Positions 24,686-31,037 of a stretch of DNA of 64,000 bases are shown here, one piece after another. Position 1 is the stretch's first letter. Every line of letters begins with the position of its first letter. Under the pieces are notes generated by a model. It searched no databases. It was not told the origin of the DNA and saw nothing but the letters and a program-made list of their open reading frames with translations. A program made the position numbers and the translations under genes. The stretch comes from Escherichia coli (GTDB lineage: Bacteria; Pseudomonadota; Gammaproteobacteria; Enterobacterales; Enterobacteriaceae). Where the stretch lies: the NCBI RefSeq assembly GCF_022846255.1, contig NZ_AP025682.1, one strand, 5' to 3'.

Positions 24686-25797
24686 TGCGCAGCTCCTGGT
24701 TTGGCCTCACCAATCACCACTTCATCGCCCGCTTCCAGCCCTTTGACAATCTCAACATCGGTATCGTTACGTGCGCCAATCGTCACTTCACGCTCGCGTG
24801 TTTCACCATTACGCAACAATTTGACTTTATAACGATTATCGCCAACCGGATCGCCTAACGCCGACAGAGGGATCGTCAGCACATTTTTCACATCGGTGAG
24901 CTGAATATGCACTTGCGCGGTCATATCCAGCCGCAGTAAACCATTGGGGTTGGGTACTTCAAAACGGGCGTAATAGAAAATAGCGTCGTTAATCTTTTCC
25001 GGCGTCGGTAGCACATCCTTGATTTGCCCCTCGTAGCGCGTCAGTGGATCGCCAAGCACCGTAAACCAGGCTTTTTGCCCCGGCTTCAGGTGGATTACAT
25101 CCGCTTCAGAAACCTGCGCTTTTACCAGCATGGTGCTCATATCTGCCAGCGTCAGAATGTTCGGTGCTTGTTGTGCGGCAATCACCGTCTGGCCTTGCAG
25201 AGTGGTGATTTGCGTGACTTCCCCGGCCATCGGGGCAACGATGCGGGTGTAATCGAGATTGGTTTTAGCCGTATCGAGAGAGGCCTGATTGCGCTTGATT
25301 TGCGCGTCAATGGTGCCAATTTGCGCCTGTTTCACAGCCATCTCCGTCGCGGCGTTATCGAGATCCTGCTGTGAAACCGCTTGCGTTTGTGCAAGACGTT
25401 GCTGACGGGAATACGTCACCCGCGCCAGTTTCAGCTCCGCTTCCGCCTGCTGCCGCTGCGCGCGTAGCTCCATCAGCGTTGCTTCCACCTCCTTGATCTG
25501 GTTTTCAGCCTGTTCAGGATCAATAACCCCTAAAAGCTGGTCTTTTTTTACTTTATCGCCAATCGCCACCGACAGCGTTTTCAACTGACCGCTGACCTGC
25601 GCGCCCACGTCAACCTTACGCAGCGCGTCCAGCTTTCCGGTCGCCAGCACGCTTTGCTGTAAATCACCGGGGCGCACAATCAGCGTCTGATAAGTCGGCA
25701 CCGGTGCGTTAAGAATTCTCCATAACGTAATCAGCCCGGCGATGACTAACACCATCGCAATAACGTAACGCTTCTTCACGGTTTTCCGCTTTTTCAT
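24682..25797 (-). CDS. macA: macrolide efflux periplasmic adaptor MacA
   Basis: ORF 24682..25824 trimmed to [18 protein letters not shown]...; 4-bp overlap with macB. Confidence 0.9.
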
Positions 25798-25911
25798 AAA
25801 TATTCTGAATACTCCATATGCCAATCCGGGTCATTAACTTCAACGAAATATCAACAAAATCCTAAAATTTACGTTAGTAATCACACTATTGATGTTTGGT
25901 TAAGATACGCA

Positions 25912-26904
25912 ATGGTGAAATCGACGTCATGTATAACCATTGATTTAATGAATATGTCGCAGCTAACTGAACGGACCTTTACGCCATCTGAATCTCTCAG
26001 CAGCCTGTCACTTTTTCTTAGTCTGGCACGTGGACAGTGTCGGCCGGGTAAATTCTGGCATCGCCGTAGTTTTCGCCAGAAATTTTTGCTGCGCTCGTTG
26101 ATTATGCCGCGTTTAAGCGTTGAGTGGATGAACGAACTTTCCCACTGGCCTAATCTCAATGTGTTGTTAACGCGCCAGCCGCGACTGCCTGTGCGTCTGC
26201 ATCGCCCTTACCTTGCGGCGAATCTTAGCCGTAAGCAATTGCTGGAGGCGTTACGTTACCATTATGCGTTACTCCGCGGGTGTATGTCGGCGGAAGAATT
26301 CAGCTTATATTTGAATACCCCCGGGCTGCAACTGGCGAAGCTGGAAGGCAAAAACGGCGAGCAGTTCACACTTGAGCTGACCATGATGATCTCAATGGAT
26401 AAAGAAGGTGACAGCACAATCCTGTTTCGCAACAGCGAAGGTATTCCTCTGGCAGAGATCACGTTTACCCTGTGTGAATATCAGGGGAAAAGAACAATGT
26501 TTATTGGCGGACTGCAAGGCGCAAAATGGGAAATCCCACATCAGGAAATCCAGAATGCGACGAAAGCCTGCCACGGGCTATTTCCCAAACGCCTCGTGAT
26601 GGAAGCGGCCTGTCTGTTTGCCCAACGTTTGCAGGTAGAGCAGATTATTGCCGTCAGCAATGAAACGCATATTTACCGCAGCCTGCGTTATCGTGATAAA
26701 GAAGGCAAGATCCATGCCGATTACAACGCGTTCTGGGAGTCGGTTGGCGGCGTATGTGATGCTGAACGTCATTACCGCCTTCCAGCACAGATAGCACGAA
26801 AAGAGATTGCCGAAATCGCCAGTAAAAAACGGGCTGAATACCGTCGGCGCTATGAGATGCTCGACGCTATTCAGCCACAAATGGCCACGATGTTTCGCGG
26901 TTAA
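25912..26904 (+). CDS. ybjX: DUF535/VirK-like protein YbjX
   Basis: 330-aa ORF in the recalled K-12 position between macA and ybjD; start not verified (alternative MSQLTERTF...). Confidence 0.75.
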   Translation: MVKSTSCITIDLMNMSQLTERTFTPSESLSSLSLFLSLARGQCRPGKFWHRRSFRQKFLLRSLIMPRLSVEWMNELSHWPNLNVLLTRQPRLPVRLHRPYLAANLSRKQLLEALRYHYALLRGCMSAEEFSLYLNTPGLQLAKLEGKNGEQFTLELTMMISMDKEGDSTILFRNSEGIPLAEITFTLCEYQGKRTMFIGGLQGAKWEIPHQEIQNATKACHGLFPKRLVMEAACLFAQRLQVEQIIAVSNETHIYRSLRYRDKEGKIHADYNAFWESVGGVCDAERHYRLPAQIARKEIAEIASKKRAEYRRRYEMLDAIQPQMATMFRG

Positions 26905-28559
26905 TCCGCGCGACCGCGCGCCAGCCACAGCACGCGTGAGAACATTTTTTTCAGCAGCGTCGGTACGGAATCCACACCACGACGTCCGGCCTCCATTGCC
27001 ACTTCAATGGCAAGATCGGGTTTGGAAGAGCGATGGATCGCTTTCGAGATAATTTTGCGCAGATTCATCGGTACATTTTCCGGGATTTGCGCCACGCGGT
27101 GGAACACATCGGAAAATCCCTGGCGATACATAAAATGTTCCATATCCAGCGCCGGTAACGCCGTTAAATGTTCTCGTTCGGCTTCCCGATCATTATTCAA
27201 CAGGCTGCGTACCGTAGCGGCATATTTCTTCCCTGCTTCATCGCCATCGACCAGTACATGCCATTCAATCCCCATTCGCCGGGCAAATTTAACCAGTGGC
27301 TTTAGCCCGGACTGGGCAAACTCAATGACCTTGATCCCTTCGGCATCAAAATGATGTCCGCACTGACGCGCCAGTTCATTGATAACCCAGGTTTCCGTTT
27401 CCCCTTCCACCAGCAGCCAACAGCGGGCAAACAGCGATGACGGACGGTTAAAACGAATGTGAAAGGAGATGCGTCGGCTATCTTCGGTACTCAAGCCACT
27501 CGGTCCCAGACGCCAGGCGGCAACGCGAGAGGACTCACGTACCAGTCGGCAAACATGCTCTACCGGCGTTAACGAAAGCAACTCTCCCGAGTTGGTAGTA
27601 GCGATGCGCTGCAATGGCAGAAGGTTCAACAGATGCCAGGCAACTGAAAGCATAATGGGGTGCAAACGGGTTTCTGGATCTTCGATCAGCAACAATGGAC
27701 GGGCGTCTTTATCCAGCCGCAATGTGCCTTTTGCCTGCAATAAAGTAGCAAACAGACCGAGCAAAATAACCCGATACGAGCGCCCACCAGGTCGGTCAAT
27801 CATCCGGTTGATGATATCCAGATAGCGCCAGCTTCGTTGCTCATTGCTGGCTCGCCGCCGCATTAAACGATATCGCGCCTGTCCGGCCCCCTGCTCAGAG
27901 AAATAATGCTCAAGCAGCTGTACCATTGCGGAAAGTCCCTGACGAATCTGTCCATCAGAGAGATTTTGCGGATGTGAGGACAACTCACGGGCGAGGAAAT
28001 CGAGCTGGCGCGCGGTGACTTCCACATTAGGGACATTTGGCACCGTGCCATTACGAATACGGCGCATAAAACGGGCATCACGCAAGCGCAGCACCGGCAT
28101 TAAACGCACCAGATGGCGTGCCTGATCGTTAATATCCTCGACATCAATCGGATGTCCGTCTTTATCGAGAAAACTGCGGAGTGTCATCACGCTGCCGTCT
28201 TCCGCACTCTCCCCTTCCAGACGATAAAAAATACGGTGATAGCCATCGGTGCATGGCGTCCAGCACGCTTCCAGTGGCCGATAGCGGCGTACCCGATGTC
28301 GGCCTGGCAGCGATTCGCGGAAGGTCAAAATAATATGCAGATGATGTTCCCGTCCGTTGATATCTCCCGGCGGGAACCAGAAATCGTCGCGCTCAAAATG
28401 GTAGAGATCTGATTCTGGCGATAGCAGCAGGGTTAAGGCGTCCAGCAAGCTGGATTTACCCCACGCGTTCTCCCCAATCAGGACGTTGTTTTGTTCCAGC
28501 ATCAACGACAAACGGTTGATACCGCGAAAACCCACAATTTCAACGCGCTCAAGAATCAT
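26901..28559 (-). CDS. ybjD: OLD-family ATP-dependent endonuclease-like protein YbjD
   Basis: 552-aa ORF; N-terminal AAA/ABC-type ATPase (GENAWGKSSLLDAL), C-terminal Toprim-like region. Confidence 0.85.
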   Translation of the reverse strand: MILERVEIVGFRGINRLSLMLEQNNVLIGENAWGKSSLLDALTLLLSPESDLYHFERDDFWFPPGDINGREHHLHIILTFRESLPGRHRVRRYRPLEACWTPCTDGYHRIFYRLEGESAEDGSVMTLRSFLDKDGHPIDVEDINDQARHLVRLMPVLRLRDARFMRRIRNGTVPNVPNVEVTARQLDFLARELSSHPQNLSDGQIRQGLSAMVQLLEHYFSEQGAGQARYRLMRRRASNEQRSWRYLDIINRMIDRPGGRSYRVILLGLFATLLQAKGTLRLDKDARPLLLIEDPETRLHPIMLSVAWHLLNLLPLQRIATTNSGELLSLTPVEHVCRLVRESSRVAAWRLGPSGLSTEDSRRISFHIRFNRPSSLFARCWLLVEGETETWVINELARQCGHHFDAEGIKVIEFAQSGLKPLVKFARRMGIEWHVLVDGDEAGKKYAATVRSLLNNDREAEREHLTALPALDMEHFMYRQGFSDVFHRVAQIPENVPMNLRKIISKAIHRSSKPDLAIEVAMEAGRRGVDSVPTLLKKMFSRVLWLARGRAD

Positions 28560-28984
28560 ATCCCCTCCAGAAATATGTGACTTATCCTTTACGCTGGCAG
28601 TATAACGGGAAAGGCCATGCTAATACGTGATGACATCACATTTAAGCATGGCAAATGTCTGAAAAATGAGCGAATAATCGCGTTATACTCCCTCTTGCTG
28701 ATAAGCCTGCAAAAACAACAAAATCAAATAATTAGCATGATAAATTATTTTTTATTACGCCTAAAGGATTAAATCTTTTGCTTGCACTACACTGTCAATC
28801 AGACAAATGACTATATGGGGCAACCCGCTGTTGCCCTAAATCAAATTTACTGGATTTATTTATCTGGTGAATGACTCGCCTTCGTTTTTAAAATAGCCGC
28901 GCATTATTTCCGTCGTCACTTTTTTACGACGACCCTATAAAACGACCATATTTTTCACAGGGTCAATTTTTAATTGAGGTGGAT

Positions 28985-29680
28985 ATGTTCAGAAAATTAG
29001 CAGCTGAATGTTTTGGTACTTTCTGGCTTGTTTTTGGTGGCTGTGGTAGTGCCGTACTGGCCGCAGGCTTCCCGGAATTAGGCATTGGTTTTGCCGGCGT
29101 GGCGCTGGCATTCGGTCTGACCGTTCTGACGATGGCCTTTGCTGTTGGTCATATTTCTGGTGGTCATTTTAACCCGGCGGTCACTATTGGTTTATGGGCT
29201 GGCGGACGTTTCCCGGCAAAAGAAGTCGTTGGCTACGTAATTGCCCAGGTTGTCGGCGGTATTGTTGCGGCGGCGCTGCTGTATTTAATTGCCAGTGGTA
29301 AAACGGGTTTTGACGCGGCAGCCAGCGGTTTTGCTTCTAACGGTTATGGCGAGCATTCGCCAGGCGGTTATTCCATGCTTTCCGCGCTGGTAGTTGAACT
29401 GGTATTGAGTGCAGGTTTCCTGCTGGTGATCCACGGCGCAACCGACAAATTCGCTCCTGCTGGTTTTGCGCCGATCGCTATTGGTCTGGCCTTAACCCTG
29501 ATTCACTTAATCAGTATTCCGGTGACTAACACTTCTGTTAACCCGGCGCGCAGCACCGCGGTTGCTATCTTCCAGGGCGGCTGGGCGTTAGAACAACTGT
29601 GGTTCTTCTGGGTGGTGCCAATTGTCGGCGGTATTATCGGTGGTCTGATTTACCGGACCCTGCTGGAAAAACGTAATTAA
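28985..29680 (+). CDS. aqpZ: aquaporin Z
   Basis: ORF trimmed to [24 protein letters not shown]...; two NPA motifs (NPAVT, NPARS). Confidence 0.95.
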
Positions 29681-29998
29681 TTAGCATTGGCATTTTATCT
29701 GCCCTGGTTGTTTTATCTTCGACGTTACAAACCGCACGGGTGTTGGTGGCGTCAAAATCGCTGAAGCGTTCCCCGAAGGCCGGGGCAGCCCACATGGATG
29801 TGGGCTGAGGGCGCGTCTTACAGGGACGTTACCTCGCGCCCGACCCGGTAGCCGAAGGGGATAAGCTGAAGGTACCGCGCAGCGGCGATTTTGTTCGCCA
29901 GAGCCCGGGGGTGCAGGGGGCGGCGGCGACTGGCCGCCCCCTGCGCGCTCCCTGCGCCAGTGGCTTTATATGGCATTGCACATGAAAGGAGCGCAACA

Positions 29999-30037
29999 AT
30001 GCTAAACACTCATATAGAATTAAAAATCCCCCTCTGA
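29999..30037 (+). other. 12-codon mini-ORF (MLNTHIELKIPL) with a strong RBS inside a GC-rich structured intergenic element
   Basis: AAAGGAG 7 nt upstream of ATG; coding status unproven. Confidence 0.15.
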
Positions 30038-30137
30038 TGCATAACATTTCCTTTTAATTGCAACTTTACTCGTCCTTCCGCTTTCAGTAGTGTGTCATCG
30101 CGCATTTCGACTTCATCTTTGCAAGGACTGGGTTTTC

Positions 30138-31037
30138 ATGTTTTCTGGGCTGTTAATCATTCTGGTTCCCCTGATTTTGGGTTACCTCATTCCGCTTCGC
30201 CAAAAAGCTGCATTAAAAGTTATTAATCAGCTATTAAGTTGGATGGTTTACCTCATTCTCTTTTTTATGGGTATCAGTCTGGCGTTTCTCGATAACCTCG
30301 CCAGTAACCTGTTGGCGATTCTGCATTATTCTGCTGTCAGTATTACCGTTATTTTACTGTGTAATATTGCCGCCCTGATGTGGCTGGAGCGCGGTCTGCC
30401 GTGGCGCAACTACCACCAGCAAGAAAAACTCCCATCGCGTATTGCGATGGCGCTGGAGTCGCTAAAACTGTGCGGCGTAGTAGTGATTGGTTTTGCCATT
30501 GGCCTGAGTGGACTGGCTTTCTTACAACACGCGACCGAAGCCAGTGAATACACCTTAATTCTGCTACTTTTCCTCGTCGGTATTCAGTTGCGCAATAATG
30601 GCATGACCTTAAAGCAGATTGTCCTTAATCGCCGGGGAATGATTGTCGCCGTGGTGGTGGTTGCCAGTTCATTAATTGGTGGTTTAATTAACGCCTTTAT
30701 TCTTGATCTTCCCATCAATACCGCGCTGGCAATGGCCTCCGGTTTCGGCTGGTATTCTCTTTCCGGTATTTTATTGACCGAATCTTTTGGTCCTGTAATC
30801 GGGAGCGCGGCGTTTTTTAATGATCTGGCCCGTGAGCTGATTGCTATTATGTTAATCCCTGGGCTGATTCGCCGTAGCCGCTCTACTGCACTGGGCTTAT
30901 GCGGTGCGACGTCGATGGATTTCACCCTGCCCGTTCTTCAACGTACAGGCGGGCTGGATATGGTCCCGGCGGCGATTGTTCACGGTTTTATTCTTAGTCT
31001 GTTAGTGCCGATTCTCATCGCCTTTTTCTCTGCATAA
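30138..31037 (+). CDS. lysO: lysine exporter LysO (YbjE)
   Basis: ORF 30090..31037 trimmed to MFSGLLIILVPLILGYLIPL... (299 aa). Confidence 0.88.
   Translation: MFSGLLIILVPLILGYLIPLRQKAALKVINQLLSWMVYLILFFMGISLAFLDNLASNLLAILHYSAVSITVILLCNIAALMWLERGLPWRNYHQQEKLPSRIAMALESLKLCGVVVIGFAIGLSGLAFLQHATEASEYTLILLLFLVGIQLRNNGMTLKQIVLNRRGMIVAVVVVASSLIGGLINAFILDLPINTALAMASGFGWYSLSGILLTESFGPVIGSAAFFNDLARELIAIMLIPGLIRRSRSTALGLCGATSMDFTLPVLQRTGGLDMVPAAIVHGFILSLLVPILIAFFSA

Follow-up and report, generated by a model that had tools for sequence, protein, structure and literature searches.

The ybjD gene of Escherichia coli encodes an intact, genuine stand-alone member of the OLD family and is a vertically inherited core gene of the Enterobacterales. 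Our main reading, to which we assign a probability of about 0.8, is that YbjD is a stand-alone OLD protein working as an ATP-gated two-metal nuclease, with a nuclease-dependent native role in surveillance or maintenance rather than in mobile phage defence. The gene is uncharacterized, and the family to which it belongs is now at the heart of research on phage defence; comparison across genomes sharpens the question of its function but does not answer it. The OLD interpretation of ybjD is already published. New here are the genome counts, the synteny, the negative search of phage records, the omega estimate and the invariance of the metal ligands, K513 and the H-loop Asn.

An intact gene on the minus strand

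The analysed window is a stretch of 64,000 nucleotides of E. coli DNA. According to the ORF list and its translation, an uninterrupted ORF of 552 codons plus a stop fills exactly positions 26901-28559 on the minus strand, confirming the 552-aa gene that the first-pass annotation had placed there; the plus-strand frame across the same interval is riddled with stops. The start codon is the ATG at 28559-28557, and the alignment of all YbjD orthologs begins at residue 1. The gene is ybjD. Of 5426 complete E. coli genomes, 5424 (99.96%) carry it, with 95-99% nucleotide identity and the annotation "ATP-dependent endonuclease". Both the gene and its neighbours aqpZ and ybjX are those of E. coli K-12 ybjD (b0876, proposed name OldB), from which the copy in the window differs by strain-level nucleotides only. 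Its 552-aa product is on record (P0001) as the representative of 5302 sequences clustered at 90% identity.

Phylogenetic footprinting across 8 genera revealed a sole invariant block, CG[T/C]TATACT, in the ybjD upstream alignment. We infer from it a putative promoter element, the TATACT hexamer; no conserved -35 was found in the same 8-genus alignment, and a simple sigma-70 consensus scan of 26500-29100 called zero promoters, TATACT included. SOS control was considered and rejected: the ybjD-aqpZ intergenic region holds no LexA-box-like site (CTGT-N8-ACAG, at most one mismatch), and such matches occur at chance level window-wide. An Rfam search of the flanks (25500-30200) returned no family above threshold, the best match being a sub-threshold TwoAYGGAY (27.6 bits vs 43, E 0.33) downstream of aqpZ.

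Table 1. Features of the ybjD locus in window coordinates.
Feature	Position	Strand	Basis or conservation
ybjD (oldB) CDS, 552 aa + stop	26901..28559	-	ORF list, translation, genome annotation, Pfam
TTAA, 4-bp tail-to-tail overlap of ybjD/ybjX stop codons	26901..26904		window sequence
Toprim nuclease domain + C-terminal four-helix region, residues 378-552	26901..27428	-	
K513, start of C-terminal helix	27021..27023	-	K513-P514 invariant in 64 family members, 79 orthologs
D472-M-E474, DxE motif	27138..27146	-	D472 63/64, E474 64/64
Toprim D438-G-D440, metal A ligands	27240..27248	-	invariant in 79 orthologs; Ts equivalents D431/D433
Toprim glutamates E385-G-E387-T-E389	27393..27407	-	invariant in 64 family members, 79 orthologs
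ABC-type ATPase region, residues 1-377	27429..28559	-	
H-loop position T321-T-N323-S324	27588..27599	-	Asn replaces catalytic His of other OLD proteins
Walker B + D-loop L289-L-L-I-E293-D294-P-E296-T-R-L-H300-P301	27657..27695	-	invariant in 79 orthologs
Walker A / P-loop G29-E-N-A-W-G-K35-S36	28452..28475	-	invariant in 79 Enterobacterales orthologs
Ribosome-binding site GGAGGGG	28562..28568	-	sequence; GGAGG core kept in 8 genera
Candidate -10 hexamer TATACT, inside CG[T/C]TATACT	28599..28604	-	upstream alignment, 8 genera

YbjD has the domain architecture of OLD proteins

Pfam assigns residues 1-375 to DUF2813 (E 2.1e-160) and residues 376-440 to OLD-like_TOPRIM (E 3.8e-16), and the N-terminal P-loop is also matched by AAA_15, AAA_21 and SMC_N. 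The PADLOC profiles for GajA and Old match YbjD with E-values of up to 7e-80 and 2e-24, respectively, while the best-scoring stretch for the AriA profile is the N-terminal P-loop (residues 1-51, 9e-13). No NCBIfam model reached its cutoff; those for MADS3, RecF, PtuA and the retron Eco8 effector resembled YbjD in the N-terminal P-loop only, the last of them scoring 20.5 bits against a cutoff of 250. The overall fold of the predicted model resembles solved OLD proteins. Inside the ATPase region the model has a helical insertion (about residues 161-285, with low confidence at 162-176 and 223-243), which is presumed to be a dimerization domain. The first-pass annotation had proposed an OLD-family protein with an ABC/AAA-type ATPase N-terminus and a Toprim-like C-terminus, to be checked against OLD, Gabija-GajA and PARIS profiles. 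The Pfam and PADLOC searches recovered the ATPase-Toprim architecture far above chance, the fold agrees with it, and family membership is upheld by profile, motif and fold.

Residue invariance was scored in 64 diverse family members and 79 Enterobacterales orthologs (Table 1). The Walker A K35 aligns to K34 of Thermus scotoductus (Ts) OLD, a Class 1 protein (PDB 6P74) with about 20% identity to YbjD; in the wider family this position is K in 57 of 64 members and R in 6. E293 and H300 are the equivalents of Ts OLD E276 and H283 (profile alignment and PMC7049728). The H-loop differs: N323 aligns to Ts OLD H310, to the His of the GajA "STHS" motif and to H332 in the P2 Old "STHS". This Asn is invariant in the 79 Enterobacterales orthologs; among the 64 wider-family members it is N in 38, Q in 10, H in 10, Y in 5 and A in 1. 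The ABC signature motif of YbjD is degenerate.

On the nuclease side, E385 is a metal A and E389 a metal B ligand, with equivalents at E377/D381 in Ts OLD and E400/E404 in Burkholderia pseudomallei (Bp) OLD (mapping of PMC7049728). D438 is kept in 63 and D440 in all 64 of the wider family. Motif spacing and likeness to P2 Old D541/E543 (PMC7049728) suggest that D472 and E474 are metal B ligands, and K513 is the probable counterpart of Bp OLD K562 and P2 Old K550 (from PMC6755086, PMC7049728). Sequence comparison thus gives YbjD the full two-metal ligand set, E385/D438/D440 and E389/D472/E474, plus K513. Ts OLD is reported to be without the C-terminal helical domain and has Arg for the catalytic Lys (PMC7049728), whereas YbjD has four C-terminal helices and the invariant K513. 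Phage P2 Old, the archetype of Class 1, is likewise a single-gene ATPase-Toprim protein with a DxE metal B motif, and shares 28% identity with YbjD over residues 252-440.

ybjD stands alone

The neighbours of ybjD in E. coli are aqpZ, lysO, ybjX and macAB. The locus had been described as next to efflux and aquaporin genes, which is true of aqpZ, the divergent upstream neighbour, but not of macAB, since the convergent ybjX intervenes. PMC12288877 lists the ybjD-ybjX pair among convergent excludons, and the overlap of the two stop codons is kept in 44 of the 57 Enterobacterales loci with ybjX. We rejected ybjX as an obligatory partner: about 23 of 80 loci lack it yet still carry ybjD, and YbjX is far less conserved (44-66% outside Escherichia). 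Transcription of ybjX is under PhoP control.

Partners were looked for in 80 Enterobacterales loci, and in E. coli, Salmonella, Citrobacter, Yersinia, Vibrio, Salinivibrio and distant relatives. Among the E. coli neighbours there is neither a UvrD-like helicase nor a reverse transcriptase nor a Toprim gene of its own, and in the more than 90 loci examined no helicase was annotated or detected beside ybjD or its relatives. Distant relatives sit amid housekeeping genes with no partner gene. Relatives matching chiefly the C-terminal half of YbjD were suspected to be of Gabija type; their sampled contexts hold no helicase. In one, the flanking genes are a PhdYeFM/PIN pair and a family-B polymerase; in another, a glycosidase lies alongside. 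In the absence of a partner gene, ybjD is a Class 1 OLD gene by the published context definition, as the first-pass annotation had suggested and as the neighbours in E. coli and the 80 Enterobacterales loci bear out. YbjD was the seed of the OLD classification of Schiltz et al. 2019 (PMC6755086), which has E. coli under Class 1.

The known partnered systems do not match the locus. For Gabija, YbjD supplies the OLD-type GajA protein, but GajB, a helicase similar to UvrD/PcrA/Rep, is missing; compared with GajA and Class 2 proteins (B. cereus GajA, 8U7I; Bp OLD C-terminal region, 6NK8), the YbjD family as sampled has no adjacent GajB. For PARIS (AriA/AriB, Class 4), ATPase and Toprim are fused in a single ORF rather than split between genes, and the similarity to AriA is not full-length. 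For the retron-associated OLD proteins (Class 3), there is neither a reverse transcriptase neighbour nor, at 25500-30200, an Rfam match above threshold that would point to an msr/msd ncRNA.

ybjD evolves as a core gene

Phage P2 old is found in 17 of the 5426 E. coli genomes, nearly all of which carry ybjD. Across the order, YbjD identity follows phylogeny, declining from 97% to 64%, and the gene stays in a single slot, hcp-lysO-(aqpZ)-ybjD-(ybjX)-macAB, which is unchanged from Escherichia as far as Yersinia, Serratia and Hafnia. The ORF is intact in 78 of 80 loci, and an omega of ~0.015 against E. albertii indicates strong purifying selection; both rule out a pseudogene or decay. This selection peaks in the Toprim core and in the part of the ATPase next to it, the adjoining lobe; the Toprim core has dN = 0 against both E. 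albertii and Citrobacter, and the nuclease site is the most constrained part of the protein. Beyond the Enterobacterales, YbjD/DUF2813 relatives occur in Vibrionales, Aeromonadales, Alteromonadales and some Betaproteobacteria.

No phage-borne ortholog was found in 50,697 phage records. Carriage by mobile elements was likewise rejected: full-length matches in the plasmid database proved to be mislabelled chromosomes, chromids or chromosome fragments, the fragments also with ybjX. ybjD therefore does not have the patchy, mobile or island distribution of defence genes; instead it shows order-wide synteny among housekeeping genes. GajA, in contrast, is patchy and often on mobile elements, and P2 Old is prophage-borne. 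That OLD proteins recur in anti-phage systems, as first noted for this gene, is true of the family; it does not make ybjD a defence gene, the population genetics being those of a core housekeeping gene.

Published phenotypes and a model for YbjD

A phage challenge is available from a micropublication, Atahualpa et al. 2026 (PMC13261556), in which ybjD was renamed oldB. There, ybjD was expressed at native level and non-essential, the Keio deletion being without reported phenotype, and deletion gave no phenotype against 68 BASEL phages. Phage phenotypes appeared only under arabinose-induced expression: weak restriction of Bas18 and Bas20, and smaller plaques of Bas64-68. These required the ATPase region, but neither the Toprim domain nor the Walker A K35; the K35A mutant was more toxic; and the effects were RecBC-independent, with no lethality in recBC cells (PMC13261556). 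P2 Old, in contrast, kills recBC cells and depends on residues of both its ATPase and its nuclease, the H-loop His among them (PMC7049728). In the literature searched, no biochemical activity of YbjD is reported, and papers in which ybjD figures as an insertion site or in a table give no functional information.

We propose that YbjD dimerizes via its helical insertion, that the ATPase, through its nucleotide state, acts as a gate on the Toprim active site, and that this site would cut nucleic acid by two-metal catalysis. ATP is probably in the main a regulatory ligand, bound and slowly turned over, as in GajA, which keeps nucleotide binding and whose ATPase domain regulates the Toprim domain in published work. 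By analogy to other ABC ATPases, slow turnover is made probable by the invariant Asn in place of the H-loop His and by the degenerate signature motif. The ATP-free protein would then be the active or toxic state, which is consistent with the greater toxicity of K35A (PMC13261556). Candidate substrates are DNA, nicked or cleaved, or tRNA as for P2 Old. The native role would be a fixed, chromosomal and nuclease-dependent surveillance or maintenance of nucleic acids, perhaps something other than classical phage defence. Phenotypes without need for Toprim or K35 are a misfit with a simple ATP-gated nuclease model; in our reading, however, a Toprim-independent overexpression phenotype says nothing of the native role. 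Housekeeping-like evolution and a constrained nuclease, set beside published phenotypes that need neither nuclease nor ATP binding, suggest that assays so far have probably missed the native function.

Alternative readings of the native role

The strongest alternative, which we hold at somewhat less than an even chance, is that YbjD is a classical single-gene Class 1 anti-phage system which, as it happens, is fixed in enterics. Like the OLD protein of Vibrio cholerae (Vc OLD) or P2 Old, it would nick phage DNA or cleave tRNA abortively, upon triggers from phages outside the tested panel. OLD members act in Gabija, retrons, PARIS, P2 Old and Vc OLD, the PADLOC matches to GajA and Old are strong, the nuclease site is intact and invariant, and overexpressed YbjD lowers Bas18/Bas20 plaquing and shrinks Bas64-68 plaques (PMC13261556). 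Moreover, core-gene status is compatible with a defence function. Nevertheless, at native level the deletion left all 68 BASEL phages unchanged, the overexpression effect dispenses with Toprim and K35 (PMC13261556), and near-universal presence, order-wide synteny, the low omega, the missing phage-borne ortholog and a place outside defence islands are the opposite of the patchy P2 old.

More tentatively, YbjD may be a housekeeping enzyme that maintains the genome or RNA. It would be to bacteria what the OLD protein Cran1 is to archaea, acting on chromosomal DNA structures or stable RNAs, and its anti-phage effect on overexpression would be a by-product of excess ATPase-domain protein. Cran1 of the Sulfolobales (PMC12796447), a syntenic, lineage-conserved OLD protein with intact catalytic motifs that is apparently not antiviral, is the nearest precedent for a non-defence YbjD. 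It is likened here by description, belongs to a different clade, and is essential and cell-cycle-linked, whereas ybjD is dispensable, with no reported phenotype of its Keio deletion (PMC13261556). The upstream region without a LexA box and the 80 enteric loci without a conserved link to repair genes also speak against a maintenance enzyme. That the YbjD/DUF2813 clade as a whole forms a housekeeping OLD nuclease, ATP-gated and with an Asn H-loop, directed at a cellular DNA structure or stable RNA and not primarily immune, is conceivable, if on balance doubtful. If the housekeeping reading is true, OLD proteins serve the bacterial cell in core functions too, and YbjD is a bacterial counterpart of Cran1.

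An orphaned Gabija GajA that lost GajB, either using a chromosomal SF1 helicase in trans or decaying as a remnant, is unlikely: no helicase adjoins ybjD in the loci examined, the Class 1 Ts OLD profile scores slightly better than GajA (1e-21 vs 1.6e-19), and decay is excluded by the omega and the intact ORFs.

Annotation pipelines should treat the gene with caution, as GajA profiles strongly match this core gene. Conversely, true Gabija nucleases that lie on islands, SGI1 for one, bear the label "ybjD".

ybjD is an intact and already known OLD-family gene

ybjD (b0876) is a single uninterrupted open reading frame of 552 codons plus stop. Its boundaries, taken from the ORF list and the translation, are exactly those of the first-pass annotation, which had given no strand; the plus-strand frame over the same interval is not open and contains many stops. 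GGAGGGG lies just upstream of the ATG, and orthologs of 80 species align from residue 1 onward. The gene is matched at 95-99% nucleotide identity in 5424 of 5426 complete E. coli genomes, where it is labelled 'ybjD: ATP-dependent endonuclease'.

An ATPase N-terminus and a Toprim C-terminus had been proposed, and profile searches recovered both. Pfam placed DUF2813 at residues 1-375 (2.1e-160) and OLD-like_TOPRIM at residues 376-440 (3.8e-16), with several P-loop/SMC_N models matching the first 50 residues. The suggested search against OLD, GajA and PARIS profiles, run with PADLOC, gave GajA matches up to 7e-80 and an Old match at 2e-24; the top-scoring stretch of the AriA (PARIS) match was the N-terminal P-loop. 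No NCBIfam model scored above cutoff. In the fold comparison, SMC, Rad50, RecF and RecN heads ranked further down. The feature is real and its interpretation is supported, yet already known: YbjD was the query defining the OLD homolog set of Schiltz et al. 2019 (PMC6755086), in which E. coli appears under Class 1, and Atahualpa et al. 2026 (PMC13261556) proposed the name oldB.

Features of ybjD, its flanks and related loci
Feature	Sequence	Position	Strand
ybjD ORF	window	26901-28559	minus
Shared ybjD/ybjX stop palindrome, TTAA	window	26901-26904	
ybjD start codon, ATG	window	28559-28557	minus
GGAGGGG	window	28562-28568	
CG[T/C]TATACT block	window	28599-28607	minus
Inverted repeat	window	28900-28940	minus (as read)
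TwoAYGGAY match	window	29752-29891	plus
Apparently disrupted ybjD	L076	5001-6658	
Long OLD protein locus	L009	5001-8567	
P0184 locus	L007	162-4882	

The nuclease site is complete

Equivalent residues were assigned from a family profile alignment to the Class 1 protein of Thermus scotoductus (Ts OLD), using the residues defined in Schiltz et al. 2020 (PMC7049728).

Catalytic residues of YbjD and their equivalents
Motif	YbjD	Equivalent
Walker A	K35	Ts K34
Walker B	E293	Ts E276
D-loop	H300	Ts H283
Metal A	E385, D438, D440	Ts E377, D431, D433
Metal B	E389; D472, E474 (putative)	DxE motif as in P2 Old
Catalytic Lys	K513 (putative)	Bp K562 / P2 K550

All 64 family members compared, at 27-54% identity, share E385, E387, E389, D440, E474 and K513-P514, and D438 and D472 are each kept in 63 of them. 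Across 79 Enterobacterales sequences every listed nuclease and ATPase motif residue is invariant, bar one D472N, and conservation is highest in the ATPase C-terminal lobe and the Toprim core. The one clear deviation is Asn323, which occupies the position of the H-loop His (Ts H310, P2 H332, the His of GajA 'STHS'); it is invariant in the same 79 sequences, and 54 of the 64 wider family members have N, Q, Y or A there. The signature-motif region of E. coli YbjD is degenerate (GGRSYR vs the family consensus GSGAQR). The OLD-family fold is intact, with a complete two-metal nuclease site and ATP-binding motifs present, and is under strong selection.

ybjD evolves like a housekeeping gene

Of the complete E. 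coli genomes, 99.96% carry ybjD, against 17 of 5426 for the prophage gene P2 old. With one genome taken per species, the best 80 relatives were all Enterobacterales, and identity to E. coli YbjD declines smoothly with phylogenetic distance: E. albertii stands at 97%, Citrobacter at 91%, Klebsiella and Enterobacter at about 85%, Mangrovibacter at 75%, and Pectobacterium, Serratia, Brenneria and Hafnia at 64-68%. The slot is constant, hcp-lysO-(aqpZ)-ybjD-(ybjX)-macAB-cspD, with aqpZ, ybjX and macAB variably present. Against E. albertii, omega is 0.015 (Nei-Gojobori; dS 0.80, unsaturated), and the Toprim core (residues 378-445) shows no nonsynonymous change relative to E. albertii or Citrobacter. 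No ortholog occurs among 50,697 phage records, and plasmid carriage was rejected, the full-length matches in the plasmid collection being mislabelled chromosomes, chromids or chromosomal fragments. Relatives at 39-56% identity in Proteus, Aeromonas, Vibrio, Motilimonas and the betaproteobacterium Chitinilyticum are likewise lone genes amid housekeeping genes. ybjD thus evolves like a housekeeping gene rather than a defence cassette.

The reading frame is intact in 78 of 80 loci; of the two exceptions, one is cut by a contig end and the other probably has a frameshift or reflects an assembly error. The latter, in Citrobacter amalonaticus AUH_CA_2023_1, is the only apparent disruption among the 79 loci without a contig-end cut; its match is split (residues 110-524), and it is probably not a real pseudogene.

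Gene context places ybjD in Class 1

ybjD sits in an unremarkable stretch of E. coli chromosome, with this gene order along the window: clpA, clpS, cspD, macB, macA, ybjX, ybjD, aqpZ, lysO, hcp, hcr, poxB, ltaE. Efflux and aquaporin genes had been described as adjacent; aqpZ is the divergent upstream neighbour, but macAB lies one gene farther, beyond the convergent ybjX. None of the genes beside ybjD encodes a UvrD-like helicase, a reverse transcriptase or a separate Toprim domain in E. coli, Salmonella, Citrobacter, the 80 Enterobacterales genomes, Yersinia, Vibrio, Salinivibrio or more distant relatives, and ybjD failed each partner-gene test that defines a Gabija, PARIS or retron system. 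In the flanks, no Rfam match to a structured RNA passed its threshold. ybjX was rejected as an obligatory partner because about 23 of the 80 loci lack it. By the published gene-context definition, a gene without a partner is a Class 1 OLD, and the stand-alone Class 1 assignment of the first-pass annotation is borne out across the loci examined.

Judged from the model, the structural class of YbjD is less clear-cut than its gene-context class. The model has four helices following the Toprim core and fits closely onto the C-terminal region of Class 2 proteins, and the alignments of GajA profiles extend to the extreme C-terminus. By profile score, however, Ts OLD is marginally the best solved relative. 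That YbjD is an orphan GajA is a minor rival reading. On Salmonella genomic island 1 (SGI1; ORFs S023/S024), 'ybjD' names the endonuclease of a Gabija-like uvrD-ybjD helicase-endonuclease pair (PMC9035990). Both the shared name and the GajA profile matches can lead annotators to mistake the core gene and mobile Gabija nucleases for one another.

Mechanism and native role

YbjD would dimerize via its helical insertion, as Ts OLD does, and would use its Toprim site to cleave nucleic acid. Given the loss of the H-loop His and the degenerate signature motif, the ATPase may act mainly as a nucleotide-sensing switch, less as a fast motor. Such a switch would agree with the toxicity of K35A, which exceeds that of wild-type YbjD (PMC13261556), and with regulatory nucleotide binding in GajA (PMC12796447).

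The phage challenge of a deletion mutant that had been proposed is already published: the gene is expressed, and its Keio deletion leaves susceptibility to 68 BASEL phages unchanged (PMC13261556). In the same study arabinose-induced YbjD lowered plaquing of Bas18 and Bas20 and reduced Bas64-68 plaque size, effects that survive Toprim deletion or K35 mutation and are lost without the ATPase region; recBC cells, which P2 Old kills, survive YbjD. The nuclease is under the strongest selection, yet the overexpression phenotypes are nuclease-independent, and they therefore probably do not probe native function. The residual interest is the native role of this core, order-wide OLD nuclease. Classical defence, immunity against an invader outside the panels tried, has a probability of roughly 0.4. 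A cellular maintenance task is only slightly less likely, and for it Cran1 of Sulfolobales offers the precedent of a non-defence OLD protein (PMC12796447); other or mixed roles account for the remainder.

Flanking regulatory sequence

The 419-bp ybjD-aqpZ spacer contains no LexA-box-like site and, in a simple scan, no consensus sigma-70 promoter. In an alignment of eight genera, CG[T/C]TATACT, ending 39 nt upstream of the ATG, is the sole invariant block, and GGAGG is also conserved. TATACT could plausibly serve as a -10 element, though no -35 is conserved alongside it; four of the eight genera have CTATACT, which we take to resemble the -10 preferred by sigma-S. Nearer aqpZ, an inverted repeat (GTCGTCGT-AAAAAAGT-GACGACG) may form a regulatory hairpin for aqpZ. 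Just 3' of aqpZ, a sub-threshold Rfam TwoAYGGAY match (27.6 bits vs gathering 43, E 0.33) probably reflects chance similarity or a repetitive extragenic element.

ybjD and ybjX overlap tail-to-tail by 4 bp at their stop codons, an arrangement retained in 44 of the 57 Enterobacterales loci with ybjX, despite YbjX protein conservation of only 44-66% outside Escherichia. A published list of E. coli excludons includes the two genes as a convergent one (PMC12288877).

Unusual distant relatives

Six DUF2813/OLD-Toprim proteins (P0149, P0162, P0165, P0175, P0166, P0206) reach 800-1900 aa, with big insertions within the ATPase and C-terminal extensions of 400-1100 aa without Pfam matches. These may represent giant variants of OLD whose insertions resemble coiled coils; the P0162 gene stands alone amid housekeeping genes. 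In loci L007 and L008 the gene of another YbjD relative, P0184, is flanked on the same strand by a PhdYeFM/PIN toxin-antitoxin pair and, 46 bp 3' of it, by the start of a gene for a family-B DNA polymerase, which may represent an OLD-polymerase association.
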